A stretch of DNA of 64,000 bases from a virus, in the IMG/VR virus record IMGVR_UViG_3300025128_006668, positions 32,001 through 96,000 of that record; one strand, written 5' to 3'. The stretch's first letter is position 1. Every line of letters begins with the position of its first letter. The translations under genes were made by a program, and so were the position numbers. Positions 4,811 to 51,900 of this stretch are shown here, piece by piece. The notes beneath the pieces were generated by a model. The model was not told the DNA's origin, searched no databases, and was given only the letters and a program-made list of their open reading frames with translations.

Positions 4811-7249
4811 ATGCCAATGTCTAAAAGAGTCAAGAAACGTAACGGAAGATTAGAAGATCTGAATCTTGATAAGATTAACAAGTGTGCTGAAATTGCTTGT
4901 AGAGATTTAGAAGACGTTTCGGTAAGCGAAGTAGTCCTTGATGCTAGTATACAGCTGTATGACAAAATAAGTACTAAAGAGATAGACAAGGCTCTCATTA
5001 TGTCGGCTCGGTCTAAGATAGAAAAAGAGCCTAACTATGGGTATGTTGCTGCAAGACTTCTTTTGCATAACTTGTACAAAGAAGTATTTGGAGAAGCTTT
5101 TGACACAGAGGATTTTCAGGTTAAATATAAGAAACATTTTTCTTCTAATATAAAAAGGATGGTTAAAGAAGATAGACTTAGTAAAAAGTTATTATCATAT
5201 GATCTTGATTTTTTGGCAGAAAACATAAAGCCGGATAGGGACAAGCTATTTAAATACCTAGGGATTCAAACTCTATATGACAGATATTTTGTTCATCTGA
5301 AAGGCAGAAGAATGGAGAGTCCTCAAGCCTTCTACATGAGAGTTGCCATGGGGTTGTGCCTTAATGAGGAGAATAAAGAAGAGAAAGCACTTGAAATATA
5401 TGACATGATGTCAGAGTTCAGATATTCTCCTTCTACTCCCACATTATTTAACAGCGGCACCAACAGGTCTCAACTTTCTTCATGTTATTTAAGTACTGTG
5501 CATGACTCAATAGACGGCATCTTCGGCACTATACACGGACAGGCAAGGTTATCTAAATATGCTGGAGGGTTAGGGGTTGATTGGTCTTCAATCAGAGCAT
5601 CTGGCTCTTACATAAAAGGCACGAATGGGAACTCTTCTGGTCTTGTTCCTTGGCTTAAAATATTCAATGATACTCTTGTAGCTGTGAACCAAGGAGGCAA
5701 ACGTAAGGGTGCTGGCTGTGCCTACCTAGAGGTCTGGCACTATGATATAGAAGACTTCTTAGAGCTTAGGAAAAACACTGGAGACGATAGAAGAAGATGT
5801 CATGACATGAATACTGCTTTGTGGACATGTGATGAGTTTATACAAAGGGTAAAAGACGAAAGAGATTGGTATTTATTTGATCCGGCAGAGTGTTCTAGTT
5901 TGCATGAGCTATATGGTGAACAATTTTCAGAAGCATATAATAAATATATTGAGCTTGCTGATCAGGGAGAAATTAAAGTATTCAGAAAAATGCCGGCAAA
6001 AGACCTTTGGAAAAAATGTCTTAAGGCACTGTTTGAAACGGGTCATCCTTGGATTACTTTCAAAGATCCTTCTAATATCAGATATAGCAACAAGCACGTC
6101 GGAGTTGTCCATTCATCTAACTTATGCACCGAAATACTCCTACATACAAAGCCGAGTGTTTATAACGAAGGAGAGCTATCTGAACTTGGAGAAACCGCTG
6201 TCTGTAATCTAGCTAGTATAAACCTTTCAAATCATGTCAAGGTCAGAACTATAGACTGGAAAAAACTTCAAAAAACAGTAGAGGTAGCTGTCAAAGGTTT
6301 AGACAATGTTATTGATCTTAATTTTTATCCTACCGACGAGGCTAGAGAATCGAACCTAAAGAATAGGCCTGTAGGATTAGGGGTCATGGGAACGCACGAT
6401 GTACTACACAAGCTAGGTATTGACTACGATAGTCCAGAAGCCGTGTCCCTATGTGATAGAGTACAAGAATTTATCTCACTTCATGCCATTAAGACATCTG
6501 CTATGATCGCTAAGGAGAAGGGTACGTACCCGACCTTCGGTGGTTCAGAATGGGATAAAGGAAATTTTCCTATCGACACGTATTGTGAGATGAAAAATCA
6601 GAGAGTCAAAACGCCTTGTGTGCTAGAGGACTATACTCTTTATGAGACACTAGACGAGTGGAAGTCAGTAAGAGATTTAGTATCTGAATATGGTATGAGA
6701 AATAGTAATGTGATGGCTATAGCTCCAACAGCTACTATATCTTACATACAAGGTTGTTCGCAGTCTATTGAGCCAGACTACTCTGTACTTTATGTTTACT
6801 CCACCCTTAGTGGTGAATTCACTATGGTCAATGAGCACTTCGTGAAATTAGCTAAAAAGAATGGCCTATGGTCACAGGCTTTGGTCGATGCTCTAAAGAG
6901 TGTAGATGGAGACGTGACTGCGCTTGTAGACTTGCCGGACGCATTTAAAAATGAATTTAAAAATGCATTTGATGTTAGTTATGAAACACTTATTAAGGCA
7001 GCAGCAGCAAGGCAAAAGTGGATTGATATGGGGCAGTCTCTAAACCTGTATAACAAGCATGAGAGTCTAAAATATCTTAATGATATGTATATGCTTGCGT
7101 GGGAAGAAGGGCTAAAAACAACTTATTATCTAAGAAGCAAGGCTGCAACCAGACTAGAGAAGTCTACAATATCTGAAAAAAGTCAAGGTATAATTAATCA
7201 GCCAAAGGCATGTTCTGTTTTAGACCCAGACTGTGAGAGTTGCCAATGA
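4811..7249 (+). CDS. nrdA: Class I ribonucleotide reductase alpha subunit with N-terminal ATP cone
   Basis: VKKRNG ATP cone, PSTPTLFNSG, LSSCY, QGGKRKGA, SNLCTEI, AIAPTATIS, LKTTYY and a C-terminal Cys cluster (CSVLDPDCESCQ). Confidence 0.97.
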   Translation: MPMSKRVKKRNGRLEDLNLDKINKCAEIACRDLEDVSVSEVVLDASIQLYDKISTKEIDKALIMSARSKIEKEPNYGYVAARLLLHNLYKEVFGEAFDTEDFQVKYKKHFSSNIKRMVKEDRLSKKLLSYDLDFLAENIKPDRDKLFKYLGIQTLYDRYFVHLKGRRMESPQAFYMRVAMGLCLNEENKEEKALEIYDMMSEFRYSPSTPTLFNSGTNRSQLSSCYLSTVHDSIDGIFGTIHGQARLSKYAGGLGVDWSSIRASGSYIKGTNGNSSGLVPWLKIFNDTLVAVNQGGKRKGAGCAYLEVWHYDIEDFLELRKNTGDDRRRCHDMNTALWTCDEFIQRVKDERDWYLFDPAECSSLHELYGEQFSEAYNKYIELADQGEIKVFRKMPAKDLWKKCLKALFETGHPWITFKDPSNIRYSNKHVGVVHSSNLCTEILLHTKPSVYNEGELSELGETAVCNLASINLSNHVKVRTIDWKKLQKTVEVAVKGLDNVIDLNFYPTDEARESNLKNRPVGLGVMGTHDVLHKLGIDYDSPEAVSLCDRVQEFISLHAIKTSAMIAKEKGTYPTFGGSEWDKGNFPIDTYCEMKNQRVKTPCVLEDYTLYETLDEWKSVRDLVSEYGMRNSNVMAIAPTATISYIQGCSQSIEPDYSVLYVYSTLSGEFTMVNEHFVKLAKKNGLWSQALVDALKSVDGDVTALVDLPDAFKNEFKNAFDVSYETLIKAAAARQKWIDMGQSLNLYNKHESLKYLNDMYMLAWEEGLKTTYYLRSKAATRLEKSTISEKSQGIINQPKACSVLDPDCESCQ

Positions 7250-7398
7250 GATTTGAAGAATATAGACAGTCACAAACCTCACCTCTTAAGTATAGATTAG
7301 AGCTGAGAGAGACAGAGCTGGAAAAAGTAAAAGATTTAATTATGCAGATCATAGAAAGAATTAAGCAAGATGAAAAAGAGCAAGGAAATAATATCTGA
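7246..7398 (+). CDS. 50-aa hypothetical protein between nrdA and nrdB (not in ORF track)
   Basis: ATGA overlap with the nrdA stop. Translation MRFEEYRQSQTSPLKYRLELRETELEKVKDLIMQIIERIKQDEKEQGNNI fills the gap and overlaps the nrdB start. Confidence 0.55.
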   Translation: MRFEEYRQSQTSPLKYRLELRETELEKVKDLIMQIIERIKQDEKEQGNNI

Positions 7399-8377
7399 TA
7401 AAGTTGCAGTAGTTAATCAAATACTTCCCCACACAAACAAATGGGCATGGGATCTGTTTATCGACGGTGCAGCTAATAACTGGATGCCAACTGAAATCTC
7501 AATGGCCAAGGATATTGAGCAATGGAAGTCTAACCTGCTATCGGAAGACGAAAAGCTAGTCGTAAAAAGGTGTCTTGGTTTTTTTGCTGGTTCAGAGTCT
7601 TTAGTAGCAAACAACTTATTGCTTAGTATCTTTAAGTATGTCACCGACCCTGAGTGTCGCCAATATATACTAAGGCAAGCATATGAGGAAAGTTTACATA
7701 ATCTCACAGTTGTCTATGTATGTGACTCTCTAAACTTAAAAATAGGAGAGGTCTACCAAGCCTACAATTCTATACCTAGTATTAAAGCTAAGGATGACTT
7801 TTTAATGAACATCACAAGTGACATTAATAGGCCAGACTTTAATATCAATACAATAGAAGGTAAGAGAGAATTTCTTAGAAATATTATTACATACTATGTG
7901 ATCTGTGAGGGAATCTTTTTCTTCTCTGGTTTTGCTATGCTTCTTTCTTTTAATAGACAAAATAAACTTCCGGGAATTGGTGAGCAGATCCAATACACTC
8001 TTAGAGATGAGAGTTTACACATAAAATTTGGAACTACTCTAATAAACAGACTTAGGGAAGATAGCCCAAAGATATGGACAAAGACGTTTGAAAAAGAAAC
8101 GCTTGAGCACATAGACACAGCAATAGAGCTAGAGCTAGCTTACGCTAGAGAAGTTCTTCCCACAGGGATATTAGGGCTAAATTCAGACATGTTTATTGAT
8201 TATGTACAATATATAGCGAACAGAAGGTTAGAAAACCTTAATCTACCAAGTCCTTATGAAGACACAAAAAACCCGTTCCCTTGGATGAGCGAGATAATCG
8301 ACCTAGAAAAGTGCAAAAACTTTTTTGAAACAAGGGTTACTGAATACTCAGTTGGGACACTAGTAGACGACTTTTAG
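7370..8377 (+). CDS. nrdB: Ribonucleotide reductase beta subunit, class Ic (R2c)-type residues
   Basis: WMPTEI, FFAGSESLV, EESLH, EGIFFFSGF, RDESLH, NFFETRVTEY. Confidence 0.95.
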   Translation: MKKSKEIISDKVAVVNQILPHTNKWAWDLFIDGAANNWMPTEISMAKDIEQWKSNLLSEDEKLVVKRCLGFFAGSESLVANNLLLSIFKYVTDPECRQYILRQAYEESLHNLTVVYVCDSLNLKIGEVYQAYNSIPSIKAKDDFLMNITSDINRPDFNINTIEGKREFLRNIITYYVICEGIFFFSGFAMLLSFNRQNKLPGIGEQIQYTLRDESLHIKFGTTLINRLREDSPKIWTKTFEKETLEHIDTAIELELAYAREVLPTGILGLNSDMFIDYVQYIANRRLENLNLPSPYEDTKNPFPWMSEIIDLEKCKNFFETRVTEYSVGTLVDDF

Positions 8378-8417
8378 TGTATATTTATGTAGACTTTCAC
8401 ATTTTTCGGAGTTTGCT

Positions 8418-9674
8418 ATGATTGATTTTATATTTGACAGAAGGAATTTTTTAAGAATAGGTTCTATTGGAGCAGGCATGTCGGCAGTGGGACTGTCTGA
8501 CTTTGCTCTAGGATCGCAGGATTTTACTAGTTATAAAGATAAAACCGTAGTCTGGGTATGGCTAGGAGGTGGCCCAACGCAATTTGAAACCTTCCACGCC
8601 CCTAACGACACTGTCCCTTCAGAATGGCAGCCTGTAAATGGCGCTATACATGACGCCAAGACCAACATCACTTTAGGCGCAGACTGGGTAGAACTTGCAA
8701 AACATACTTCAAAGTTAAGTATAGTCAATTCTTTCAGTCATAAAGACTCGTCTCACAGACAGGGGACGCACTTTATGATGACAGGACATTACAATCCCGA
8801 AAGAAGTACAACATCTATTGCTAAATACCCCTCTTTTGGGTCTATAGTCTCAGCCATTTATGGTGCAAATCACTCTAGTAATGGAGTGCCTACTTATGTT
8901 AAGCAAGGTAAGATTGAAGGAGATGAGGGCGCTTGGTTGGGTGGAGCATTTAAACCATTTGATCCTTCCAATAAAGATAACCTCACACCAAGAGTTGAAC
9001 TCGATAGGTTCTCAACAAGAAAAGAACTACTCGCAGGATTAGATGCTGCAAGAGTTTCCAGCAAAGGAGCTGAGTCAGTACAGTTTTACAAAGGTCAGGC
9101 TTATGATGTTATCCTAGGTTCCGCTAAAGAGGCTTTTGCTGTAGAAAAAGAAAGCGAAGCAACGAAAGCTCTTTATGGGTCTACAAAAGCTAAGGATATT
9201 GGCGAACAGCTTATCTTGGCTCGAAGACTTGCAGAAAATGGAACACGATTCATAACCCTTCATTATGGTGGATGGGATATGCATAGCAATATATCTAAGG
9301 CAATGCAAGGAAAAGTCCCTCCTTTGGATAAGGCTCTAGCAGGCTTCTTGCAAGATATACAAGACAGAGGGATGAGTGAGAAGGTTCTTCTGGTTGTAAC
9401 CGGAGAGTTTGGTAGAACTAAGTTTAATGCAAATGCAGGTAGAGACCATTGGCCTGCAATTACCCCTATGCTTATGGCAGGTGGAGAATATGAGTCCGGA
9501 AGAACGATTGGTGCTGCTGACAGATCCTATAATCCAATTGAAAAACCTGTAGGGCCTCTCGATTTACAGGCAACTTTATTTGACCACTTTGGTATTGACA
9601 CAGCAATTCAGCGTGTTGATAATGGCGGTCGTCCAAGATATTTACTAGAAGGTGAAGCTAAGGTAATTTTATAA
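8418..9674 (+). CDS. DUF1501 family protein 1 (Tat signal)
   Basis: DRRNFL Tat motif, WLGGGPTQFETF, ARRLAENG, GGWDMH, GEFGRT, GRDHWP. Confidence 0.9.
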   Translation: MIDFIFDRRNFLRIGSIGAGMSAVGLSDFALGSQDFTSYKDKTVVWVWLGGGPTQFETFHAPNDTVPSEWQPVNGAIHDAKTNITLGADWVELAKHTSKLSIVNSFSHKDSSHRQGTHFMMTGHYNPERSTTSIAKYPSFGSIVSAIYGANHSSNGVPTYVKQGKIEGDEGAWLGGAFKPFDPSNKDNLTPRVELDRFSTRKELLAGLDAARVSSKGAESVQFYKGQAYDVILGSAKEAFAVEKESEATKALYGSTKAKDIGEQLILARRLAENGTRFITLHYGGWDMHSNISKAMQGKVPPLDKALAGFLQDIQDRGMSEKVLLVVTGEFGRTKFNANAGRDHWPAITPMLMAGGEYESGRTIGAADRSYNPIEKPVGPLDLQATLFDHFGIDTAIQRVDNGGRPRYLLEGEAKVIL

Positions 9675-11092
9675 TGAAAGATAATAAGTATTTACAAGCT
9701 GTAGGAGATCACTTAAACGAGGAAGGGTTTACAGAGGAGCTTACTGAGGCTAACTTTGTTATCCCTGAGGAATCTGACTACATTGACTTTGGAGAAGAAA
9801 CCGAAGAGTGGGACGTTGCCGCAAACCGTCCCGGCTTGTGGGAGAATATAAGAAGGAAGAAGCTTAGAGAGGGCAAGAATTATAAACCTGCTAAGACGGA
9901 GAAAGAAGGGCGTCCAAGCCAAAAGGAGCTCAAAAAAGCTCAGAGCGCACCTAGAGACCCTAGAAGAACTCCTGCTCCTAAAAAAGACCAAAAGAAAGGC
10001 TCTAAAAAGAATAAGCCCGATAGCGCTAAGAAGCCAAACAAAAGTATCAAGTTCAGCAAAGAGGTAACACAGCAGCTGTCTAATAAAGTCAAAGAACATA
10101 ATGCTAAAGACAAAGGTTCTAAGGCAACGCTCGGAGCGCTAAAAGCAGTTTATAGAAGAGGCGCTGGCGCTTACTCAACTAGCCATGCGCCAAAGATGAG
10201 TCGTCATGGATGGGCCATAGCAAGAGTCAATGCTTTCTTGTACCTATTAAGAAATGGAAGGCCTAAAAACTCTGGCTACAAACAAGACAATGACCTTCTC
10301 CCAAAAGGACATCCTAGAAAAAGCTCTGCCGGTATGAAAAAGAAGTACTCAATGGGCGAAGGCAATGAGGATGTGTTCACGAACCCCGGAGAAGCAATGA
10401 AAAGAGCCAAAGAGCTCGGGCTAGACGACATTCATACACATAAGACTGATGACGGTAAGACTATCTATATGCCGGGTAAAAATCACGAAGAGTATATGAA
10501 GACTGTAACCACAAAAGGGCCCAATTATAAAAAGGTATATGCTGGTTATAAATATCAAGATCCCAAGACAGGTGAAATGTACACCTTCAGAAGAAGAGGC
10601 GTTTACAGAAAAGATGGTCGAATACTAATTCCTGTAAGAGGATCTAAGGCTCATAAGGCAGGACCAATGGAAGACCATGTGTTCACAAGCAAAGAAGCCG
10701 CCATGAAGTTTGCGAAAAAGTTCGACGACTTGAGTGACAATGTCCATACTAAAAAGACCGGAGACGGAACTGTTCTTTATATTCCCGGAAAGAATGAAGA
10801 AGAGTTTAGAAAATGGTACAAGTCGCATAAAGGGGAAGATGCTAAAGGGGCTGAGTATCAAGGTAGAAAAGTTACTCTCAATAAACCGTTTAGAACACCA
10901 GACGGGCCAAAGAAAAGATCTGTCTATGTTAAGAATGAAAAAGGTAATGTAGTTAAGGTCAACTTTGGTGATCCTAATATGAAAATCAAAAAGAACATAC
11001 CGGAGAGAAGGAAGAGTTTTAGAGCTAGACACAACTGTGATAACCCCGGTCCAAAATGGAAGGCAAGATACTGGTCTTGTAAGGCATGGTAA
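9674..11092 (+). CDS. Basic multi-module phage protein (possible internal virion/DNA-binding protein)
   Basis: Very Lys/Arg-rich. Contains a LKAVYRRGAGAY...WAIARVNAF module, two copies of an FT...A...A....H......Y.PGKN.EE repeat, and a C-terminal AEYQGRKV...VNFGDP...SFRARHNC...ARYWSC module recalled from large aquatic phages. Confidence 0.7.
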   Translation: MKDNKYLQAVGDHLNEEGFTEELTEANFVIPEESDYIDFGEETEEWDVAANRPGLWENIRRKKLREGKNYKPAKTEKEGRPSQKELKKAQSAPRDPRRTPAPKKDQKKGSKKNKPDSAKKPNKSIKFSKEVTQQLSNKVKEHNAKDKGSKATLGALKAVYRRGAGAYSTSHAPKMSRHGWAIARVNAFLYLLRNGRPKNSGYKQDNDLLPKGHPRKSSAGMKKKYSMGEGNEDVFTNPGEAMKRAKELGLDDIHTHKTDDGKTIYMPGKNHEEYMKTVTTKGPNYKKVYAGYKYQDPKTGEMYTFRRRGVYRKDGRILIPVRGSKAHKAGPMEDHVFTSKEAAMKFAKKFDDLSDNVHTKKTGDGTVLYIPGKNEEEFRKWYKSHKGEDAKGAEYQGRKVTLNKPFRTPDGPKKRSVYVKNEKGNVVKVNFGDPNMKIKKNIPERRKSFRARHNCDNPGPKWKARYWSCKAW

Positions 11093-11096
11093 GAAT

Positions 11097-11276
11097 ATGA
11101 ATAAAAATGAATTCCTAAAAGCAGTGGATGATTATCTCACAAAAGATGTGCGTAAAGAACAAAAGAAAAAGAAGAAGCACACTGTATATAAGCCTCCAAG
11201 CTGGAAAAAAGACAACCCCGGAAAATACCAAGTATTAGAAGCTCCAGAGCCAGATGAAGATCAAGGCCCTAGTTAA
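11097..11276 (+). CDS. 59-aa hypothetical protein
   Basis: ATG at 11097 (MNKNEFLKAVDDYL) resembles the N-terminus of 9674-11092 (MKDNKYLQAVGDHL). Confidence 0.6.
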   Translation: MNKNEFLKAVDDYLTKDVRKEQKKKKKHTVYKPPSWKKDNPGKYQVLEAPEPDEDQGPS

Positions 11277-11288
11277 AGGAAAATTGAA

Positions 11289-12596
11289 ATGAAATGTAGA
11301 GGAAACAATATTGCTCGCCGTTCTTTTATACATGTCGGAATGGCAGGAGGAATAGGATTAGGTTTATCAGATTTTTTTAGAATCAGAAAAGCCCAAGCAG
11401 ACCAAAAGTTTTACGAGAGCGTAGAGGGGCCAGCAAAGTCTGTTATCTATATTTATCTGCCCGGCGGTTCTGCGCATCAGGAAACATTTGATCCTAAACC
11501 GCTGTCTCCGTTAGAGTATAGAGGCCCAATGGCTAGCATTGAGACAAATGTTCCCGGAATCAGACTTAATGAGATGATGAAAAACACTGCTAAGCTAATG
11601 GATAAGATTTCCATCATTCGCAGTATGACACATGGAGAGGCAGCGCATGAACGAGGCACACATAATATGTTTACTGGCTATAGACCTAGTCCAGCACTCC
11701 AATATCCTTCCATTGGTTCAGTGGTTGCACATGAGTTTGGCCCACGTCATAACTTACCACCTTACGTCTGTATCCCCAATCAGCCTAATGAGTTCGCAGG
11801 TACTGGATATCTAAGTAGCTCATTCTCAGGCTTTAGTCTAGGTTCTGACCCTGCGAGTGACGGGTTTCAAGTTAGAGACTTGAAGCTTCCTAATGGTGTT
11901 AATGATGGTCGCTTTGGAACACGTCGCAAAATGCTGGGTGCTGTCAATGACTATTTTGCAACTAAAGAAAAATCAGACTCTCTGGATGCCGTAGATTCTT
12001 TTTATGATCGTGCTTACAGCTTGATTAGCAGCGAAAAAGCCAGAGATGCTTTTGATATAAACAAAGAGGATGCTGTAACTAGAGACAGGTATGGTAGAAA
12101 TACCGCTGGAGCCAGAATGCTTTTGGCTCGTCGGTTAGTCGAAGCAGGGACGAGGTTTGTAACGCTAACTTATGGTGGCTGGGATATGCATGATAATATC
12201 GAAGCCGGAATACGAAGACAAGTCCCAGCTCTAGACCAAGGACTAGCGGCATTGATAGAAGACTTAGACCAAAGAGGTCTTCTTGAATCAACCTTGGTAT
12301 GTGTGGCTTCTGAGTTTGGCAGAACCCCAAAAATAAACGCCAATTCAGGAAGAGACCACTGGCCTAAAGTGTTTAGCACCCTAATGGCAGGAGGTGGAAT
12401 CAAGGGCGGTTTAGTATATGGAAAATCCGATGCGACCGCTAGTGAGCCAGAAGAAAATGCTGTAGGAGTGGAAGACTGGGCATCTACGATTTATAATAGG
12501 ATAGGGATCGTCCCCGATAAAGAGCTTATGGCTCCCGGAGATAGACCTATTGAAATTGTAGATGGTGGTAAAGTTATTCAAGATTTAATTATTTAG
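11289..12596 (+). CDS. DUF1501 family protein 2 (Tat signal)
   Basis: ARRSFI, YLPGGSAHQETFDPKP, ARRLVEAG, GGWDMH, SEFGRTP, GRDHWP. Confidence 0.93.
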   Translation: MKCRGNNIARRSFIHVGMAGGIGLGLSDFFRIRKAQADQKFYESVEGPAKSVIYIYLPGGSAHQETFDPKPLSPLEYRGPMASIETNVPGIRLNEMMKNTAKLMDKISIIRSMTHGEAAHERGTHNMFTGYRPSPALQYPSIGSVVAHEFGPRHNLPPYVCIPNQPNEFAGTGYLSSSFSGFSLGSDPASDGFQVRDLKLPNGVNDGRFGTRRKMLGAVNDYFATKEKSDSLDAVDSFYDRAYSLISSEKARDAFDINKEDAVTRDRYGRNTAGARMLLARRLVEAGTRFVTLTYGGWDMHDNIEAGIRRQVPALDQGLAALIEDLDQRGLLESTLVCVASEFGRTPKINANSGRDHWPKVFSTLMAGGGIKGGLVYGKSDATASEPEENAVGVEDWASTIYNRIGIVPDKELMAPGDRPIEIVDGGKVIQDLII

Positions 12597-12609
12597 TCTG
12601 GAGATAGAT

Positions 12610-12807
12610 ATGAAAAAAAGAATTCCAATTATAGCTATTATTATAGTAGTTGCGATATGTATCGCAAACAAAGATGAAATTAAACAAATGTTTAACAAAG
12701 GAGAAGATAAAGTGGTAAATTGTTCAATCTGTGTAGAAGAATGCCCATGCGTAGAAGCTGAATGCGTCTGCAAGGCAACTTGCAAATGTGATAATTGTGT
12801 TAGCTAA
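12610..12807 (+). CDS. Membrane-anchored metallothionein-like Cys-rich peptide
   Basis: GGAG RBS, N-terminal signal/anchor, C-terminal CSICVEECPCVEAECVCKATCKCDNC (9 Cys in 26 aa). Confidence 0.7.
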   Translation: MKKRIPIIAIIIVVAICIANKDEIKQMFNKGEDKVVNCSICVEECPCVEAECVCKATCKCDNCVS

Positions 12808-12824
12808 TTAACTAGAGGTGCAAA

Positions 12825-14108
12825 ATGTTAAGTTTATCAAGAAGAAGTTTTCTGTCAGTAGGAGGTTTAGGCCTTCTTACTATGCCGCAGGTATTACGCG
12901 CTCAAAATAATAATGGGACATCCCACAAGGCTGTGATTAACATCTTCCTTGGTGGTGGCCCTCCGCATCAAGATATGTGGGATATAAAGACAGAAGCTCC
13001 ATCGGAGATTCGAGGACCATTTAAGCCGATCCCGACCAATGTGGCGGGAGTGCACATCGGGGAATGTTTCCCTGAAATTGCTTCAATGTTTGATAAATTT
13101 ACAGCTATTCGTTCTGTAGTAGGATCTGATGGATCACATGATGGATACCAGTGCGTTACTGGATGGAGTCGTAAAGACATGGTGTCCGGATCTAGCTATC
13201 CAGCTATTGGGGCGTGCGCCTCTAAAATATTAGGCCCTGTTGACCCTGCTGTACCGGTTGCAGTAGGGTTAGCGGAGGCTACTCAGCATATGCCTTGGTC
13301 AGAAGCAGGAGGAGCTGGTTATCTTGGAGATACCCATAAGCCTTTCAAGCCAAATGGCCAAATGATGAAAGACCTTAAACTCAATATGGAAGTAGAAAGG
13401 TTTAAGAATAGAAAAGCCCTTCTTAATGGTTTTGCAAATATCAATAAGCAGATAGACAAGGCTGTTAATGTTGATACGTTTACTGAAGAGGCGTTTGGAG
13501 TTCTTACTTCAAGCTCTTTAGTTGATGCTTTAGACTTGTCAAAAGAAGACGCAAAGATTAGAGAAATGTATGGAGATGGTAAGCCGTTTAAATTCCAATA
13601 CGACGGAGCGCCCACAGTTAATGAGCATGTGCTTATGGCTCGCCGCTTAGTATCTGCTGGGGCACGCTCTGTCACACTATCATACGGAAGGTGGGATAGC
13701 CACGGATCTAACTTTGATCTAGTCAGAGATCATGGAGCCAAGCTAGACCAATGCGTATCGGCTCTTGTTAAAGATCTTGATCAACGAGGTATGCTTGACG
13801 ACACACTTGTTGTAGTATGGGGAGAATTTGGCAGAACCCCTAAGATCAACCCAAAGGGTGGTCGTGACCACTGGCCGCAAGTTTCTGCAGCACTACTAGC
13901 AGGAGGAGGATTCAATCACGGGCAAACCATCGGAGAAACCAATAGGCTTGGGGAAGTTCCAGAGTCCAGACCTGTGCACATACAGGAAATCTGTGCAACA
14001 ATGTATAGAGGTCTAGGTATCGACACGATGTCCACAACTTTATTAGACAATACTGGAAGACCTCAATATCTTCTAGATCACAGAGAGCCTCTAAAGGAGT
14101 TAATTTAA
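12825..14108 (+). CDS. DUF1501 family protein 3 (Tat signal)
   Basis: SRRSFL, FLGGGPPHQDMWD, ARRLVSAG, WDSH, GEFGRTP, GRDHWP. Confidence 0.93.
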   Translation: MLSLSRRSFLSVGGLGLLTMPQVLRAQNNNGTSHKAVINIFLGGGPPHQDMWDIKTEAPSEIRGPFKPIPTNVAGVHIGECFPEIASMFDKFTAIRSVVGSDGSHDGYQCVTGWSRKDMVSGSSYPAIGACASKILGPVDPAVPVAVGLAEATQHMPWSEAGGAGYLGDTHKPFKPNGQMMKDLKLNMEVERFKNRKALLNGFANINKQIDKAVNVDTFTEEAFGVLTSSSLVDALDLSKEDAKIREMYGDGKPFKFQYDGAPTVNEHVLMARRLVSAGARSVTLSYGRWDSHGSNFDLVRDHGAKLDQCVSALVKDLDQRGMLDDTLVVVWGEFGRTPKINPKGGRDHWPQVSAALLAGGGFNHGQTIGETNRLGEVPESRPVHIQEICATMYRGLGIDTMSTTLLDNTGRPQYLLDHREPLKELI

Positions 14109-14392
14109 TGGTTAAACTAAATGATTGGGTTCAAAGAACTAAGTTTCCCCTTGAAGGAAACGCAGCATTTGACTGACATGAGTACTCTATCGCACAGGTT
14201 GTGCGTATTGATGAAGAGTGTGTGGAAGTAGACTTTGCATGTAGCTGTATGACTTTTGATGGAAGCAGCAAAAAGCTTTGGGCTCATGGAGAATATCTTC
14301 CTCTTGATGATGAGTCTTATGCGAAACATAAAAAGGCACATGACGCCTGTTGTCTTTTTGGAGAAGAACTGGAAGTAGATTATGCAACGTAG
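14108..14392 (+). CDS. 94-aa Cys/His-rich protein with in-frame UGA at 14174-14176; candidate selenoprotein
   Basis: ATG overlaps the upstream stop (TAATG) and the frame continues through a single TGA to TAG 14390-14392, overlapping the next start. A SECIS-like hairpin lies directly 3' of the UGA. Confidence 0.55.
14183..14220 (+). promoter_or_regulatory. Bacterial SECIS-like stem-loop
   Basis: Apical hairpin CGCACA-GGT-TGTGCG (14191-14205) with the loop starting 20 nt after the UGA; lower stem TACTCT/AGAGTG. Confidence 0.5.
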
Positions 14393-15599
14393 AAATTTTT
14401 TGAAACATTTATCAGTATTCCCTACCTTATCTTTAATAGAATCTCTTAGAGCTAATGAAGAGGAGCTAAAGAAGAATGGTAAGTCAGCTATCTTATTATG
14501 GATGGGCGGTGGTCCTTCAACAATGGATATTTGGGACTTGAAACCGGGTGCTCCTACAGGAGGCCCATTCAAACCTATCGGTACATCTGGAGATGTTCAG
14601 ATCTGCGAACATATGCCCCTCATGGCAAAGCAGATGCATAATGCTGCGATTATTAGAAGTATGAGTACGAGAGAAGCGGATCATATGCGTGGAAGATATT
14701 ACATGCATACGGGCTATGTTCCCAACCCAAGCATGACTCATCCTAGTTATGGATCTGTCATATCGCATCAGCTCCAAAGACCAGAAGTTTCTATCCCTAA
14801 ATTTATCTCCGTTGGAGGAGGCAGTATGGGAGCTGGTTTTTTGGGCGCTAAATATTCGCCGTTCGTTGTTAACAGCGATGGTAGAATAAGAAACCTAAAT
14901 ATGAAAGTAGACCAAAGATTCTACCAAAGAGCATATGCCTTGGACGCTATAGAAACAAGCTTTATAAATCAAAGAAGAGGTTCTGCTGCAAAAGAACATC
15001 AAGCTATACTGAAAGAAGCTTTTGGAGTACTCACAAGTTCCCAGATGGATGCTCTCAAGGTAGCTGGTGAGCCAGAGAATGTAAAAGAGAGATATGGAGA
15101 TAATGGTTTTGGTAAAGGATGCTTAATGGCTAGGCGACTAGTCGAAGCAGGAGTTCCATTTATTGAAGTCAATCTTGGGGGATGGGATAATCACCAGAAC
15201 ATTCATCCTATGTTAAGAGATACTAAGTTGCCTATGCTTGACCAAGGCATGAGTGCGTTGTTTGAAGATTTAGAACAAAGAGGGATAATTGATGACACTG
15301 TAGTTATTTGGATGGGAGAGTTTAGCAGAACTCCCCGTATCAACCAGAACGCTGGACGTGACCATTGGGCGCGTAGCTGGAGCGTTGTTGTTGGAGGAGG
15401 CGGAATGAACGGAGGCATATCTATTGGAGAAACAAGCTCCGATGGGACTAGAGTTGAGACAGAACCACATACATCGCAAGATGTTATGGCATCTGTGTGT
15501 AAAGCCTTAGGCATTTCGCTTGGCACAACATTTACTAGTAATAACGGCAGACCTATGAAAATTGCCAATTCTGGTAAGATTATTAAAGAATTATTCTAA
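14382..15599 (+). CDS. DUF1501 family protein 4 (Tat signal)
   Basis: QRRNFL, WMGGGPSTMDIWD, ARRLVEAG, GGWDNH, GEFSRTP, GRDHW. Confidence 0.93.
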   Translation: MQRRNFLKHLSVFPTLSLIESLRANEEELKKNGKSAILLWMGGGPSTMDIWDLKPGAPTGGPFKPIGTSGDVQICEHMPLMAKQMHNAAIIRSMSTREADHMRGRYYMHTGYVPNPSMTHPSYGSVISHQLQRPEVSIPKFISVGGGSMGAGFLGAKYSPFVVNSDGRIRNLNMKVDQRFYQRAYALDAIETSFINQRRGSAAKEHQAILKEAFGVLTSSQMDALKVAGEPENVKERYGDNGFGKGCLMARRLVEAGVPFIEVNLGGWDNHQNIHPMLRDTKLPMLDQGMSALFEDLEQRGIIDDTVVIWMGEFSRTPRINQNAGRDHWARSWSVVVGGGGMNGGISIGETSSDGTRVETEPHTSQDVMASVCKALGISLGTTFTSNNGRPMKIANSGKIIKELF

Positions 15600-15895
15600 T
15601 GAAATTTTATCGAAACGCAGTCTATGTTCTTGCAACCCTTTGTTTCTTTAATATGTTACAAAGTGCTTATGTCTACAAAAAACTTGTACAAATAGAAGAG
15701 AAGCAAAATAAAATAGAGGTTAAAATACCCATTTCAGAGGATCTGAAGGAATTGCCCTTACATACTAGACTTAGAGACTCCCAGATAATGCAGGCAATCC
15801 TTATGACGCATCACCAATTAGGGGTACATGATCCGGGCTCTCAGCCTATGTGCCCTATGTGTCAACAACAGGGATTAAAAACAGTATCAGATTAA
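15599..15895 (+). CDS. Membrane-anchored protein with C-terminal HH...H...CPMC motif
   Basis: TAATG overlap, N-terminal TM segment, possible metal-binding tail. Confidence 0.65.
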   Translation: MKFYRNAVYVLATLCFFNMLQSAYVYKKLVQIEEKQNKIEVKIPISEDLKELPLHTRLRDSQIMQAILMTHHQLGVHDPGSQPMCPMCQQQGLKTVSD

Positions 15896-15945
15896 GCTTT
15901 TTGGGGTATTTACTCTTAGATCTACAATTTTCCTAGGAGTAAAAA

Positions 15946-48998: not shown

Positions 48999-51900
48999 TT
49001 AACCACATCCGGGATTAGCACAATCACAGAATCCACCATCATTAGTTATTCCTTTGAACAAGCCACAGTCACTGAAGTTTAGAGTGACATAGTTAATTGA
49101 CAGTTTATCACCCGTGCAGCATACATCTCTAACGACTGTTATTCCAGTTGAAGTTCCTCCAGCACAGAAAGGATCAAGCTCAATATCTATTCCACATGCG
49201 TCACCTGCAGTTGCAGTAGCCTTGATGCCACAACCAAAGTTGAAATCCTCTATAGGTCTAGAGAAGTTTCCTGAGCAGGCTGTTACGTTGAAATATGTTC
49301 CGATATTTTGCACGCAAGCATTTGTTCCATTTTTGACAAATGCTATACCCGGACCTGCACCTATCGTTCGTATATCTTGATTGACGCTGGGCGCTGACAA
49401 TGCAGTGAACGCACCGCATGCTAGCTTTCCGTTATACTCTAAAGGTATTGCATCTAAGAAATAATCACAGCTTCCTGATGCAGTAAACTTAACACCATTT
49501 CTAGCAAAAATATTCCTAAAATGATTATGCTGGGCATTAGTAGGAGAACTGGTTGGATCTCCGCAGCCGTCTTCACTAGGGACATTAGCAAGGCCCATGT
49601 AAATATCAACAGATGCGGTGCCATCAGCAGAAACCTCACCTATCCTTAAACCTGTCCTGAAATCAACGCAACTAACACCTTCGCATGATGTTATCGCTCC
49701 TGCAGGTGTACATGCCGCTGTGTCTTTAATTGGTGTGCATGAGTGAATTGTAAACTCACATGCTTTCGCAGCGTTAGCCGCACCTTCGTCAATGACGCTC
49801 ATGCCACTACCAAAGTTCAACTTGGAGAAGAACTTGTAATCAAAGTCATCGTCTGGACTGCAATAGCTAGCGGTAGACTTAATATAGTGATCAGCAGAAA
49901 TACCGTACTCACATTTGCCACCAGCTATTTCATGAAGGCGAAGGCCTGTTCCGGCAACAAGTGTCCTGAAGTAAGTTCCTCCAAGACTGAGGTCTGCTGG
50001 TCTAGATACAGTAGGTGTCCATCCGCAATATGCCTCGTCTCTTATAAACCTTTCAGTGTGAATATTGTACTCGCAGTTACTGCCTCTTAGTATGAATCCA
50101 GTGCCGAGTGTAAGCTGATCGAAGTGAACAGGACCATCAACACTTCTGGTGTTGTTACAATGCTGGGTAGAGTCTATTAATCTTCTGGCATTAACTATTG
50201 TTGTCTTAAAATCTGGAGCAGCTCTATATATTCTTAATCCAGTTCCATAGGTTGTGCACTCAGTATCGCTACATGCATTTATAGGGGCCTCACTAGGAGT
50301 GCTCGGAGGCGTATATCCGCAGTATCCTGAGCCTCTAGTTTGATGGACTGAGCCACTTCCGCTTCCACCTGAACCACAGGCAAATATATGATACTCACAA
50401 TCTCCTCCGGTTACGCCTATACCCTCTCCAAAGAATAGGTGCGTGAATGGTTGCTTATTGATACTAGTGCTTGTATCCTCGCACGTTGTATCTGTAGATG
50501 TTATATACTGAGGTGCAGCTATCTCGTAATTACAATTGCCAAGATCTGTGACTGCAATACCCGTGCTAAACTTCAGATCCTTAAAGAACTTTTTACCAGC
50601 TATAGAAGCTAGACCACAGTTGGCGCCATGACTAATAGTTCTGTCAGAGTCAATTGTGAACAAGCAGTCCGAGCCTTCAGATATGACAAGCCCAGAACCA
50701 AATTCTAGCGTCTTAAAGAACTCAGCGTTGGTTTCGGTATAACAAGTAGCATCAGAGTGTTTAATCGAGTGATTAGCATCAATTCTATACGTGCAATTCG
50801 ATTCTGCTTTTAAGTTCAGACCAGAACCTAAATTCAATGTATTAAAGTGAGCTTCAGCAACCGCTGATTCACCGCATGTACTTGTCTTCTTAATCTTTCT
50901 ATATGCAGAGATATTAAATTCGCAGTTAGAGGCTGAATCAACCTTTATACCAGAACTAAAATTAAGTGTTCTAAACTGAGTCTCAGCAACCGCTGGCACA
51001 CCGCAATCAGCAGTTTTCTTAATCTTAAAGTCGGCATCTATAAAGTACGTGCAGTCTCCAGCATCTTGCACTCTGAGTCCGCTTCTTGCCTTCAATGTCT
51101 TAAAGAATGCGTCAGATATGGTAGTTGGCTGGTTACAAGAAGTAATATCGGTAATATAGTGATTTGCATTTACTCGGTACTGACAGTTACCCATATCCTG
51201 CAGATAAAGACCTGTACCAAAGTCCAGCCTATTAAAGAACTCGTATGAGCCTACTTTATGATTGCTCTGGCAAAGATTAGTATCTTTTACATAATGATCT
51301 GCTTCTATTGAAAAATCTTTACAGTCACCTTCCGTAAAAGCATTGAGCTTGAGCCCTTTATCAAAGGCTAGGTTTCTGAATAAATTTCTGCCGTTTACAG
51401 AAGGGTTATAGTTGCAATAACCAGAATCTTCAACGGTTACATTTAACCCTATAACAAAGTCGCAGTCCGAAGCATCAGAGACCTTAATACCACTTGTGAA
51501 CTTAAGATCTTGGAAGAATTTCTTATCTACTTCAACACCATCGGATTCGCAAGGATCTGCAGATATAGTCCTATCAGAATCTATGTTGAATGCACAAGTA
51601 CCCGTGCTGTCAATTGTAAGGCCGGAACGGAATATTAGCCTGTCAAATATAGAAGCGGCACTGCTGCCTCCTGCACAAACTCCAGAATCTTCTATCCACA
51701 TTGGAGATGTTATTTCAAAGTCACAAGCATTCTCATTTGCCTGAACAACCAGACCAGTGCTGAACTTAAGGTGTCTAAAGAACTTATCGCTTACCGTGTC
51801 TCCACTGCAATATGGTGCTGCGCTAATATTATGGTCTGCATGGAATGTATAATTACAATCTCCAGTATTTTTCAGATAAAGACCTGTTCCCGCAACGATA

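Follow-up and report, generated by a model that had tools for sequence, protein, structure and literature searches.

A conserved phage cassette of four DUF1501 genes of separate cellular origin

Positions 8418–15895 of the window (the whole 64,000-nucleotide stretch analysed here, positions 32,001 to 96,000 of the virus record IMGVR_UViG_3300025128_006668) carry four intact DUF1501 genes of separate lineages, which have the composition of the phage, are under purifying selection and keep the invariant residues of their family; taken jointly, these points leave very little doubt. The fuller proposal, in which the products would act as auxiliary periplasmic metallo-esterases supplementing the DUF1501 modules of the host, stands, as a whole chain, about an even chance. 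The phage is large, uncultured and marine (record of 125,401 bp, CheckV completeness about 52%), and the carriers of the island form a clade of large tailed marine phages with a wide distribution. The function of DUF1501 is stated as unknown in passages of Kamneva et al. 2012 (PMC3542564) and He et al. 2017 (PMC5615132), and the cassette presents one of the largest unexplained gene families of Planctomycetota in a small form open to testing. The initial annotation had called the system undescribed, and no printed description of phage DUF1501 arrays was found in the literature.

The four genes and their cellular relatives

The four genes, all on the plus strand, match Pfam DUF1501 (PF07394) over their full length: D1 (8418..9674, 418 aa, E 1.5e-68), D2 (11289..12596, 435 aa, E 3e-117), D3 (12825..14108, 427 aa, E 2.1e-83) and D4 (14382..15599, 405 aa, E 2.7e-104); the whole record holds exactly these four. 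As the initial annotation had read from the sequence, each protein has an RR-x-F-[LI] twin-arginine motif inside its first 12 residues (RRNFL at residue 8 in D1, RRSFI in D2, RRSFL in D3, RRNFL at residue 3 in D4), and all four share the GG, WDxH, E-F-x-R-T and GRDHW motifs without variation. All four retain 24 family-invariant residues, the D/H/E cluster included, and no membrane anchor was found outside the signal region.

The genes had also been described as too divergent for a recent tandem duplication, and this is borne out: pairwise identity is 29.2–37.4%, and the phylogeny with host paralogs places each copy beside its own cellular sister (SH-aLRT 97–100). The AU test rejects a single D1–D4 clade (delta lnL 930, p 2.6e-73), for a group picked after the tree was seen and a question named beforehand in the initial annotation. 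The separate cellular sisters and the rejected single clade speak for separate captures and against tandem duplication: D1–D4 each descend from a different cellular DUF1501 lineage. The best identities to Planctomycetota genes are 83% for D2, in marine Pirellulaceae/Planctomycetaceae metagenome-assembled genomes (MAGs); 77%, 76% and 75% for D4, in single genes of genomes G004, G001 and G307; 67%, 59% and 58% for D3, in G308, G004 and G001; and 44% for D1 in five candidate host genomes (41% in a sample of 301 Planctomycetota genomes). The D1 viral clade sits on a long stem, sister to cellular genes (SH-aLRT 100), and the 120 best D1 homologs listed (at least 60% identity) all lie on contigs of at most 154 kb, none named Planctomycetes; D1 was acquired much earlier and now forms a phage-specific, long-diverged lineage. 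D2 is a xenolog of the DUF1501 gene in a conserved PVC four-gene cluster. As had been proposed, a planctomycete host is very likely, and most likely a Pirellulaceae-like member of the Planctomycetota, since genes of marine Pirellulaceae/Planctomycetaceae MAGs match D2 and D4 at 76–83% identity.

Genomic setting and the interleaved ORFs

The island sits between phage-core genes for the large and small ribonucleotide reductase (RNR) subunits on the left (4811..8377, plus strand; phrog_84 E 3.9e-245, phrog_86 E 3.6e-75) and a gene for a PhoH-like protein on the right (19414..20088, plus strand; phrog_170 E 1.3e-69). PHROG matches around it comprise head protease, RNR, PhoH, UvsX, DnaB, primase and DNA polymerase, and genes for terminase, portal and clamp loader lie in other parts of the record. 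The order RNRb-D1-D2-(D3)-D4-PhoH is found again in dozens of IMG/VR contigs: among 80 related loci, D1 and D2 occur together in 36, D2 and D4 in 29 and all four in 11, while 14 have D1-D2-D4 without D3, which only some members of the phage clade have; D1 is preceded by RNRb in 16, D4 and PhoH co-occur in 19, and at least three further genes are common to record and locus in 52. In relatives PhoH directly follows the small gene m98; the 1132-aa ORF between these two here (15946–19344) was found in none of the 80. GC3 is 0.31–0.35 in D1–D4, 0.25–0.35 in phage core genes and 0.48–0.52 in the G001 relatives of D2, D3 and D4. The 9-kb island stretch is present in 20 runs from 13 studies, and four runs, each from a different study, supply contigs that bridge every island junction, with 0–3 differences each. 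Given the phage-like GC3, the recurring gene order and the bridging contigs, the island is genuine phage DNA, and the assembly chimera with host DNA that the initial annotation had raised is refuted. The island may be regarded as a long-standing auxiliary gene cassette of the phage clade.

The small ORFs said to be interleaved with the four genes do exist. C65 (12610..12807, plus strand, 65 aa) has a hydrophobic signal/anchor N-terminus and 10 cysteines, with the conserved module C-x2-C-x3-CPC-x4-CxC-x3-4-CKC-x2-C; homologs occur in 20 of the 80 related loci (16 distinct, four with a lipobox-like LMT[LV]GC), dN/dS is 0.20 against locus L036, and neither Pfam nor NCBIfam gave a family, nor the ESM Atlas a usable match. 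The Cys-rich nature given to this peptide stands; the label metallothionein-like is doubtful in view of its signal/anchor or lipobox N-terminus. m98 (15599..15895, plus strand, 98 aa), whose start overlaps the D4 stop, has an N-terminal membrane helix and the motif R...H-x2-G-x-H...C-P-x-C (HH...H...CPMC here), with R59, H72, G75, H77, C85, P86 and C88 invariant among 19 distinct sequences; homologs lie downstream of the D4 gene in 23 of the 80 loci. Its AlphaFold2 (AF2) model has three helices (pLDDT 79, pTM only 0.36), and searches gave no Pfam or NCBIfam family and no usable ESM Atlas lead. Two of the small Cys/His-rich proteins are conserved beside DUF1501 genes.

The UGA ORF (14108..14392, plus strand, 94 codons) has an ATG overlapping the D3 stop, a 3' end overlapping the D4 start and an in-frame TGA at 14174–14176 (TGA-C, 14174–14177). 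The TGA, together with a codon-like substitution pattern on either side, is kept in all three homologous loci, as is a predicted, invariant hairpin (CGCACA-GGU-UGUGCG, 14191–14205), and in three independent runs contigs cross the site with zero differences. Full-length homologs have Trp, not Cys, at the TGA position, and 30 of the 134 ORFs of the record end in TGA as a normal stop. K472 (9674..11092, plus strand, 472 aa), a basic, Lys-rich protein whose start overlaps the D1 stop (TAATG), matches DUF5824 (E 4.9e-7) and, in its C-terminal part, phrog_7595 (E 2.2e-12); ORFs of its similarity cluster lie inside the island span of 29 related loci, and it is probably outside the enzyme function. 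Summed depth is raised, with many variant contigs, at 10912–11212. s79 (11037..11276, plus strand, 79 aa), which overlaps the end of K472 and comes from the ORF list only, had no Pfam family match and no homolog in related loci, and is doubtful as a gene. The islands of relatives also hold a PAP2 phosphatase (two loci) and a calcineurin-like phosphoesterase (one locus).

Fold, partners and possible function

The dN/dS values of D1–D4 against L036 are 0.023–0.035, that is, about 0.02–0.04 over the whole length, and are rough because dS is near saturation (0.6–1.6) even against the closest locus; they point to strong purifying selection. D2 (AF2 model, pLDDT 86.4) is confidently modelled as an alkaline-phosphatase-superfamily fold, nearest to NPPs (Z 20.7, rmsd 3.2 Å, 247 residues) and PafA (Z 19.7) and then to sulfatases (about 18), in a ranking that spans only about 3 Z units. 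Its ASEFGRT segment aligns with the VADHGF motif of NPP (hhalign probability 47.5%, 43 columns), there is a weak Pfam match to PF01663, and a sequence search for a solved DUF1501 structure found none (best E 0.19). The initial annotation had suggested an alkaline-phosphatase/sulfatase-like site: the superfamily fold is upheld by the model, whereas the C/S-x-P-x-R (sulfatase CxPxR) motif is absent from all of D1–D4, and neither a formylglycine-generating enzyme nor an anaerobic sulfatase-maturing enzyme is among the PHROG or Pfam matches of the record.

The usual partners, PSCyt2 (DUF1549) and PSD1 (DUF1553), reported absent from the window, have no match at E <= 1 in the whole record. The cellular D2 relative heads a DUF1501 / PPC / Big_2-PSCyt2-PSD1 / PSCyt1-WD40 cluster (L086, L102), and a PSCyt2/PSD1 gene lies 2.1–3.5 kb downstream in 57 of 59 cellular D2-type loci. 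In G001, the D3 relative is upstream of a PSCyt1/PSCyt2/NPCBM/PSD1 gene, and the D4 ortholog directly follows a 580-aa PSCyt2/PSD1 gene; after it come an ECF sigma factor and another PSCyt2/PSD1 protein. Nine of the 80 viral loci do have a PSCyt2/PSD1 gene, directly upstream of a DUF1501 gene in the seven checked.

The favoured explanation is that D1–D4, folded and probably metal-loaded, would be exported to the periplasm by the host Tat system by way of their twin-arginine N-termini. Once there, they may serve as alkaline-phosphatase-superfamily enzymes, either metal-dependent esterases or transferases, with an NPP/PafA-like core in which E-F would replace the usual D-H metal motif; they would not be formylglycine sulfatases. 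D2, D3 and D4 would cooperate with host PSCyt2/PSD1 partners, which the phage does not carry, and periplasmic release of nutrients (from organic phosphate, sulfate or glycan esters) would be maintained or raised while host expression fails; the nutrients may feed phage DNA synthesis, the cassette lying between RNR genes and PhoH. At a guess, the two small membrane-anchored Cys/His-rich proteins may assist metal loading or folding. The RNR/PhoH neighbourhood argues only weakly for a phosphate role, and the many sugar-nucleotide and glycosyltransferase genes of the record also fit envelope remodelling.

Such remodelling, receptor masking or superinfection exclusion is the main, though unlikely, alternative: the exported enzymes would remove or transfer phospho- or sulfo-groups on host surface glycans or lipids jointly with phage sugar-nucleotide genes, blocking later phages or aiding progeny escape. 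The record has four nucleotide-sugar epimerases, an aminotransferase, glycosyltransferases, methyltransferases and two heptose kinase/adenylyltransferase-like genes, one relative (L009) has a GT29 sialyltransferase-like gene after m98, and the fold list includes the same-superfamily envelope enzymes LtaS and YejM/PbgA; nevertheless, the sugar genes of the record are distant from the island, D1–D4 have no anchor beyond the signal region, and the cellular relatives adjoin PSCyt2/PSD1 genes (one with a carbohydrate-binding NPCBM), with the ECF sigma factor after the D4 ortholog, a layout resembling substrate use more than envelope synthesis as presented in part of He et al. 2017 (PMC5615132). Far less probable is the decoy role for host DUF1501 complexes that had been suggested, with dominant-negative phage subunits binding the host PSCyt2/PSD1 partners and shutting host modules down. 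Of each module the phage has just the DUF1501 half, and D2 and D4, at 76–83% identity to host genes, are close enough to compete for partners; what disfavours the idea is that every family-invariant residue is retained and that selection is strongly purifying along the whole length, and it also sits poorly with the long retention of D1 without a close host counterpart and with the partner gene on some phages. A single capture with duplication within the phage, or a chimera, has virtually no chance, in spite of four tandem genes on one strand and of at least 54 to more than 100 DUF1501 genes per candidate host genome (counted with different queries), given the separate sisters, the AU result, the phage GC3, the kept order, the bridged junctions and cellular D2-type loci that share almost only the D2-type gene with the 148 ORFs of the record, apart from a few distant matches (24–54%) such as an epimerase.

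Comparison with known systems

Modules of DUF1501 with PSCyt1/PSCyt2/PSD1 are described for Planctomycetota, Verrucomicrobiota and Lentisphaerae in passages of Kamneva et al. 2012 (PMC3542564) and He et al. 2017 (PMC5615132), the four-gene form being the most complex cluster type in the former. Their DUF1501 proteins share with D1–D4 the Pfam family, the twin-arginine N-terminus and the invariant residues, and that of the four-gene module is 83% identical to D2; however, the cellular modules include the partners, whereas the phage carries four module types by their DUF1501 half alone, in an operon-like array with small phage-specific proteins.

NPP and PafA-type alkaline phosphatases are the best structural matches to D2 (Z 20.7–19.7, rmsd 3.0–4.4 Å, 241–278 residues), and the local profile match to NPP covers the strand with the D-H metal motif, but identity is only 12–16%, E-F stands in place of D-H, and GG would occupy the position expected for the first metal Asp, judging from sequence and secondary structure. 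Formylglycine (type I, S1) sulfatases share the superfamily fold (Foldseek top matches at probability 1.0, VIA Z about 18) and differ in having C/S-x-P-x-R. One public record labels a D2 relative 'sulfatase'.

PhoD and PhoX are Tat-exported, with folds that differ from DUF1501. Among phage genes, phoA and phoD have an accepted role in P acquisition and form an auxiliary set with pstS and phoH, according to part of PMC10987575; like the cassette, the P-acquisition genes are host-derived and under purifying selection, some coding for exported nutrient-releasing esterases. The cassette, in contrast, belongs to a different family, forms a four-paralog array instead of one gene and lacks the host partners; it adjoins phoH, itself in the phage P-acquisition gene set.

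Island layout and setting in phage DNA

Four complete genes of the DUF1501 family (PF07394, gathering score 27 bits) lie on the plus strand of the window between genes for ribonucleotide reductase (RNR) and PhoH: D1 (8418–9674, 418 aa, Pfam E 1.5e-68, 232 bits), D2 (11289–12596, 435 aa, E 3e-117, 392 bits), D3 (12825–14108, 427 aa, E 2.1e-83, 281 bits), and D4 (14382–15599, 405 aa, E 2.7e-104, 350 bits). Their matches span positions 1–2 to 386–390 of the 390 in the profile, and the family search found exactly these four in the entire record (125,401 bp, about 52% complete by CheckV, with the window as its bases 32001–96000). The proteins are 29.2–37.4% identical in pairwise comparisons, have the GG, WDxH, EFxRT, and GRDHW motifs in common, and carry an N-terminal twin-arginine motif (RRNFL in D1, RRSFI in D2, RRSFL in D3, RRNFL in D4), in all cases at or before residue 12; R10 and R11 are kept by 90% or more of the 51 family members aligned, and by the RR-x-F-[LI] signal motif D1–D4 are predicted Tat substrates. 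Pfam and the alignment confirm the observation in the initial annotation of four full-length DUF1501 genes with a Tat motif and conserved motifs, the wider reading placed on it being partly supported as a whole.

The genes are tightly packed, with TAATG overlaps at the junctions of D1 with K472 (9674–11092, plus strand, a basic protein that combines DUF5824 with a phrog_7595 domain), of D3 with an ORF interrupted by an in-frame UGA, and of D4 with m98 (15599–15895), and with spacings of 13 nt between D2 and the cysteine-rich C65 (12610–12807) and of 17 nt between C65 and D3; a doubtful 79-aa ORF (s79) also falls within the island. Scans for consensus promoters and terminators returned sites no commoner than in shuffled sequence, Rfam gave three matches in 8000–20500, all far under their gathering scores, and NCBIfam holds no family for D1–D4 or the small island proteins. 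Between m98 and PhoH stands a 1132-aa ORF with 40 cysteines (15946–19344), which has no family match and no counterpart in any of the 80 related loci, and whose left junction is bridged by independent contigs.

The surroundings are viral, with PHROG matches around the island to a head maturation protease, both RNR subunits, PhoH, a UvsX-like recombinase, DnaB, primase, dNMP kinase, exonuclease, a sigma factor, and a DnaE-type polymerase in two pieces, and with a large terminase, portal, clamp loader, SSB, and dUTPase in the rest of the record. The third-position GC content of D1–D4 (0.31–0.35) falls in the range of RNR, PhoH, and polymerase (0.25–0.35), that of the relatives of D2, D3, and D4 in G001, a candidate planctomycete host genome, being 0.48–0.52. 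A pattern scan of IMG/VR yielded 520 stretches, 400 of them with an encoded relative, and the best 80 of these 400, ranked by likeness to D2, were analysed with an ortholog cut-off of at least 55% identity for the gene-order counts, many loci stopping at contig ends. Within these best 80, 52 have at least three other genes in common with the record; orthologs of D1 and D2 occur together in 36, those of D2 and D4 in 29, all four genes in 11, and D1-D2-D4 without D3 in 14; in 16 loci D1 is preceded by the RNRb gene, and in 19 PhoH follows D4.

The island is not a chimeric assembly with host DNA, which would have refuted the reading in the initial annotation. In the coverage check of the island borders that the annotation called for, contigs from four runs of four studies bridge the RNRb/D1, D1/K472, and K472/D2 junctions as well as D2/C65/D3, D3/UGA ORF/D4, and D4/m98/next gene, differing at 0–3 positions each. 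A 9-kb stretch recurs near letter-identical in marine, seawater, and sponge metagenomes (20 runs, 13 studies), with no RNA run among those listed, and the summed contig depth across the island is even except at 10912–11212. This last interval, the K472 C-terminus with the phrog_7595 domain, rises several-fold in depth, with numerous variant contigs, in all four runs, and the domain seems common in the sampled metagenomes; ORFs of the K472 similarity cluster lie inside the island span in 29 loci.

Compared with L036, the viral locus closest to the record, D1–D4 are 92–96% identical in protein sequence, RNRa 80%, and PhoH 78%, and dN/dS is 0.023 for D1, 0.025 for D2, 0.034 for D3, and 0.035 for D4 vs 0.081 for PhoH and 0.20 for C65, values that are rough since dS in this pair is 0.6–1.6 and is saturated in farther pairs. 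Lying between viral genes, conserved in relatives, homologous to cellular genes, and held under purifying selection, D1–D4 are phage auxiliary genes.

The record has further features of its own. Its DnaE-type (Pol III alpha-like) polymerase (30885–35483) is divided into two ORFs, 30885–32744 and 33849–35483, with exonuclease-subunit-like and heptose kinase/adenylyltransferase-like genes between them, the nearest GenBank phage polymerases being 30–34% identical. On the minus strand of 48999–63998, two giant ORFs (2713 aa and more than 1721 aa) and the 532-aa ORF that separates them have no PHROG match. Outside the window, at record positions 13–1410 and 9443–9780, aragorn found genes for tRNA-Glu, tRNA-Asp, tRNA-Met, and tRNA-Arg and a tmRNA with the tag AEKNFSLAA. 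A large sugar-nucleotide and modification gene set (record positions about 6400–23500 and 113000–114200; L205, L206, L207) comprises four nucleotide-sugar epimerases, an aminotransferase, glycosyltransferases, several methyltransferases, a radical SAM protein, and a cysteine-dioxygenase-like domain.

Cellular relatives and separate captures

The four genes differ in their distance from cellular sequences. D2 shares 83% identity with genes from marine Pirellulaceae/Planctomycetaceae MAGs, with identity declining gradually to about 58% through Planctomycetota and then Verrucomicrobiota; beyond the D2-type gene, the cellular loci have few and distant matches to the 148 ORFs of the record (e.g., an epimerase at about 30%) and are thus not phage sequence binned in error. 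Single genes matching D4 reach 77% identity in G004, 76% in G001, and 75% in G307, and genes matching D3 reach 67% in G308, 59% in G004, and 58% in G001, all four being candidate host genomes. The best identity of D1 is 44% in the candidate host genomes and 41% in 301 sampled Planctomycetota genomes, 8 of which matched at E ≤ 1e-60. The best 120 relatives of D4 (at least 79% identity) all stand on contigs of at most 172 kb, and the best 120 of D1 (at least 60%) on contigs of at most 154 kb, none of these D1 relatives being named as a planctomycete.

An IQ-TREE phylogeny of 73 rows (27 viral, 46 cellular), for which a FastTree overview guided the choice by eye of clade representatives among the 260 distinct DUF1501 sequences in the loci analysed, places each of D1–D4 with its own cellular sequences (SH-aLRT 97–100) and requires at least 11 changes of the viral/cellular label. 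The AU test, run once the tree was known on a question that the initial annotation had posed beforehand, rejects a single clade of the four window genes against the 46 cellular rows (delta lnL 930, p-AU 2.6e-73). Since each gene has its own cellular sisters and the single clade is rejected, D1–D4 are on phylogenetic grounds four separate captures; the proposal of four independent captures, with no recent tandem duplication, is thus upheld. The capture of D1 is old, and D2 and D4 derive from lineages closest to G001- and G004-like bacteria. Cellular D2- and D4-type genes nest, with weak support, among the viral ones, so repeated exchange between phage and cell, in either direction, is possible.

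In cells, the relatives of D2, D3, and D4 stand beside PSCyt2/PSD1 genes. The D2 ortholog is first in a four-gene cluster, DUF1501 / PPC / Big_2-PSCyt2-PSD1 / PSCyt1-WD40 (cellular loci L086 and L102), an arrangement that is the most complex DUF1501 module in the account of Kamneva et al. (2012, PMC3542564). Cellular D2-type loci that extend 6 kb or more beyond the gene number 59, and in 57 of them a PSCyt2/PSD1 ORF (DUF1549/DUF1553, PF07583/PF07587) lies on the same strand 2.1–3.5 kb downstream. The D4 ortholog is preceded by a 580-aa PSCyt2/PSD1 gene and followed by an ECF sigma factor and then a second PSCyt2/PSD1 protein, and a relative of D3 lies upstream of a PSCyt1/PSCyt2/NPCBM/PSD1 gene. 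The absence of such partners, noted earlier for the window, extends to the whole 125-kb record (about 52% complete), in which PF07583 and PF07587 have zero matches at E ≤ 1, and the related loci of the record's own phage clade have no PSCyt2/PSD1 beside DUF1501. The family is abundant in the candidate hosts, with at least 54 to at least 100 matches in each of the first five genomes (best 100 candidates scored) and, with the D3 protein as query, 64–151 in each of a second set of five.

Predicted fold and the smaller island proteins

A model of D2 built from the 51-sequence alignment (mean pLDDT 86.4, pTM 0.84), in which the first 24 residues, the signal region, are disordered, was matched by Foldseek to sulfatases, alkaline phosphatases, LtaS, and YejM at probability 1.0 and TM 0.3–0.42. 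VIA-align placed nucleotide pyrophosphatase/phosphodiesterases (NPP) at Z 20.7–19 (rmsd 3.0–3.6 Å over 239–249 residues, 12–16% identity), among them a snake-venom PDE (Z 20.7, 3.2 Å, 247 residues) and Xac NPP (Z 20.6), with PafA at Z 19.7 and sulfatases at about 18. As modelled, D2 has the core fold of the alkaline-phosphatase superfamily, nearest to its NPP/PafA branch; a PDB sequence search with the DUF1501 profile found no solved structure matching (best E 0.19). The initial annotation had asked for structure prediction with an alkaline-phosphatase/sulfatase-like metal site in view; the D2 model bears out the superfamily fold, and the C/S-x-P-x-R motif that is converted to formylglycine in type I sulfatases is lacking in D1–D4.

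The canonical bimetal site of the NPP/PafA branch consists of three Asp and three His with a Thr/Ser nucleophile. In DUF1501, 24 columns are invariant in the 51 sequences including D1–D4, among them H120, D299, H301, R345, T346, R355, D356, and H357 (D2 numbering), and H120, judged by the secondary structure, would start the helix after the second core strand, where the superfamily nucleophile usually lies. D2 has a weak Pfam match to PF01663, and hhalign sets its residues 306–348 against the D-H metal-motif strand of planctomycete PF01663 proteins at a probability of 47.5%, with E342-F343 facing the D-H of an NPP-like protein from a planctomycete. One planctomycete PF01663 subfamily (L198, L199, L200, L202) has 'SEY' in place of the canonical NPP 'DHG', which resembles the 'SEFG' of DUF1501.

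Two of the smaller proteins have conserved cysteines or histidines. C65 has 65 residues, 10 of them Cys, and a hydrophobic N-terminal signal or anchor; its homologs in 20 loci (16 distinct) likewise have a hydrophobic N-terminus, with a lipobox-like LMT[LV]GC in four, and their nine to ten Cys follow a fixed pattern. Metallothioneins are cytosolic Cys-rich metal-thiolate peptides, whereas the signal/anchor or lipobox of C65 indicates a place outside the cytoplasm; the databases searched gave no family match and the ESM Atlas no usable one. Homologs of m98 follow D4 in 23 of the best 80 loci, R59, H72, G75, H77, C85, P86, and C88 are kept in 19 distinct sequences, and the model (pTM 0.36, too weak for a fold search) leads from a membrane helix to a long helix whose end carries the His pair, then by a loop to a short helix from CPMC; m98 has no database family and ESM Atlas scores of at most 0.84. 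Neither has homologs in the cellular loci at E 1e-5, and a guess would be that both aid metal loading or folding of the exported enzymes. The islands of relatives add an IscA-like Fe-S protein in five loci (e.g., L028:3740–4060), a ferritin-like protein in two (L045:6730–7251), an EF-hand protein in eight, a PAP2 phosphatase in two (L056, 13881–14546, and L009), and, in one locus each, a calcineurin-like phosphoesterase (L040:5484–6134), a GT29-like transferase, and a trypsin-like peptidase; these are weak hints at metal handling and phosphoester chemistry.

The UGA ORF (14108–14392, plus strand, 94 codons, in-frame TGA at 14174–14176) has its ATG at 14108 overlapping the D3 stop and its 3′ end overlapping the D4 start. 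The in-frame TGA-C is kept in all three homologous loci, at 80–87% nucleotide identity with most changes on either side at third codon positions, and three independent runs span the site with zero differences. An invariant hairpin, CGCACA-GGU-UGUGCG (14191–14205), lies 14 nt downstream of the TGA, and gives no covariation evidence since its sequence never varies. Three full-length homologs from a library of 1.84 billion proteins have Trp, not Cys, at the position, which disfavours selenocysteine; aragorn found no tRNA-Sec or suppressor tRNA in the record, Rfam gave no match, and genome-wide recoding is rejected, with TGA ending 30 of the record's 134 ORFs. From its sequence, the ORF looks like a case of leaky or programmed read-through as Trp, or of reinitiation at GTG 14201; its protein has no similarity to the 2713-aa protein of the window.

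DUF1501 in other viruses and possible roles of the cassette

DUF1501 genes also occur in viral loci sharing no genes with the record: in L082 beside T4-type gp15, portal, and gp23 capsid genes, in L080 beside genes for gp32, DnaB, a RecA-like protein, and a family-B polymerase, and in L057, L063, and L079 beside ThyX, UvdE, QueC, and sulfotransferase genes. Nine of the best 80 viral loci have a PSCyt2/PSD1 gene, directly upstream of DUF1501 in all seven examined; the whole two-gene module is found at L080:1342–4370, L074:15697–18881, L083:7149–10164, L076:11478–14535, L046:7914–11272, and L051:4903–8347, several of the contigs with it being T4-like. Three viral D2-type genes are sister to Verrucomicrobiota genes (SH-aLRT 96–97). 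The DUF1501 most often captured in the sample is that of the four-gene cluster conserved across the superphylum, a frequency biased by the ranking of loci by D2 likeness.

Described phages offer little for comparison: the 50,697 records of INPHARED have no D2 match by tblastn at E ≤ 1e-5, and BFVD holds one 'DUF1501 domain-containing protein [uncultured Caudovirales phage]', so that viral DUF1501 is present in public databases without a study. The only phage DUF1501 found in the literature is a weak CDD match in a 61-aa Pseudomonas phage protein; searches on PF07394, DUF1549, DUF1553, PSCyt2, and COG4102 found no work on viruses, phrase searches no paper on planctomycete phages, and those on planctomycete jumbo phages and on Tat-exported phage auxiliary genes nothing on DUF1501 cassettes.

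The most likely explanation, at about even chances, is that D1–D4 form an auxiliary cassette of predicted Tat-exported, NPP/alkaline-phosphatase-like metallo-enzymes that supplements the periplasmic DUF1501 modules of the host, probably via host PSCyt2/PSD1. The main rival, that the four proteins remodel the host envelope, is considered rather unlikely. The function of the cellular family is given as unknown in PMC3542564 and PMC5615132, Kamneva et al. proposing membrane-targeted electron transport (PMC3542564) and He et al. (2017, PMC5615132) noting partners with carbohydrate-binding domains and proposing a role that mirrors glycoside hydrolases.

Beyond supplementation in this one phage, it may tentatively be supposed, at less than even chances, that phages of the PVC group repeatedly target the DUF1501-PSCyt/PSD machinery and that the cluster is a periplasmic step limiting phage yield. 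Unrelated phage types, among them the record's own Pol III-alpha clade, T4-like phages that have gp23/gp20, and others whose copies are Verrucomicrobiota-like, carry DUF1501 nearest to genes of the likely host phylum, some with PSCyt2/PSD1, and this repeated capture suggests a general phage strategy in the group. Under such targeting, phage-made DUF1501 subunits would dock on host haem-motif partners, and the step could, as one possibility, consist in freeing phosphate or sulfate, with Fe/Ca or Zn as the metal, from polymers that the cell has taken up into the periplasm.

DUF1501 and its PSCyt/PSD partners are among the largest gene families of Planctomycetes and Verrucomicrobia, and a phage that keeps just four DUF1501 genes under strong selection, without partners, points to the paralogs that matter and offers compact proteins for expression and assay. 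If the reading is true, the function of the largest orphan family of Planctomycetes could be sought with the four-gene cassette as a minimal, portable set. The cassette also ties large phages of marine and sponge origin, a widespread clade without cultured members, to planctomycete hosts. Phage phoA and phoD have been described and assayed (PMC10987575). In the cellular module of Kamneva et al., PSCyt2/PSD1 stands beside DUF1501; in the phage record, about 52% complete, no match to these partners was found.
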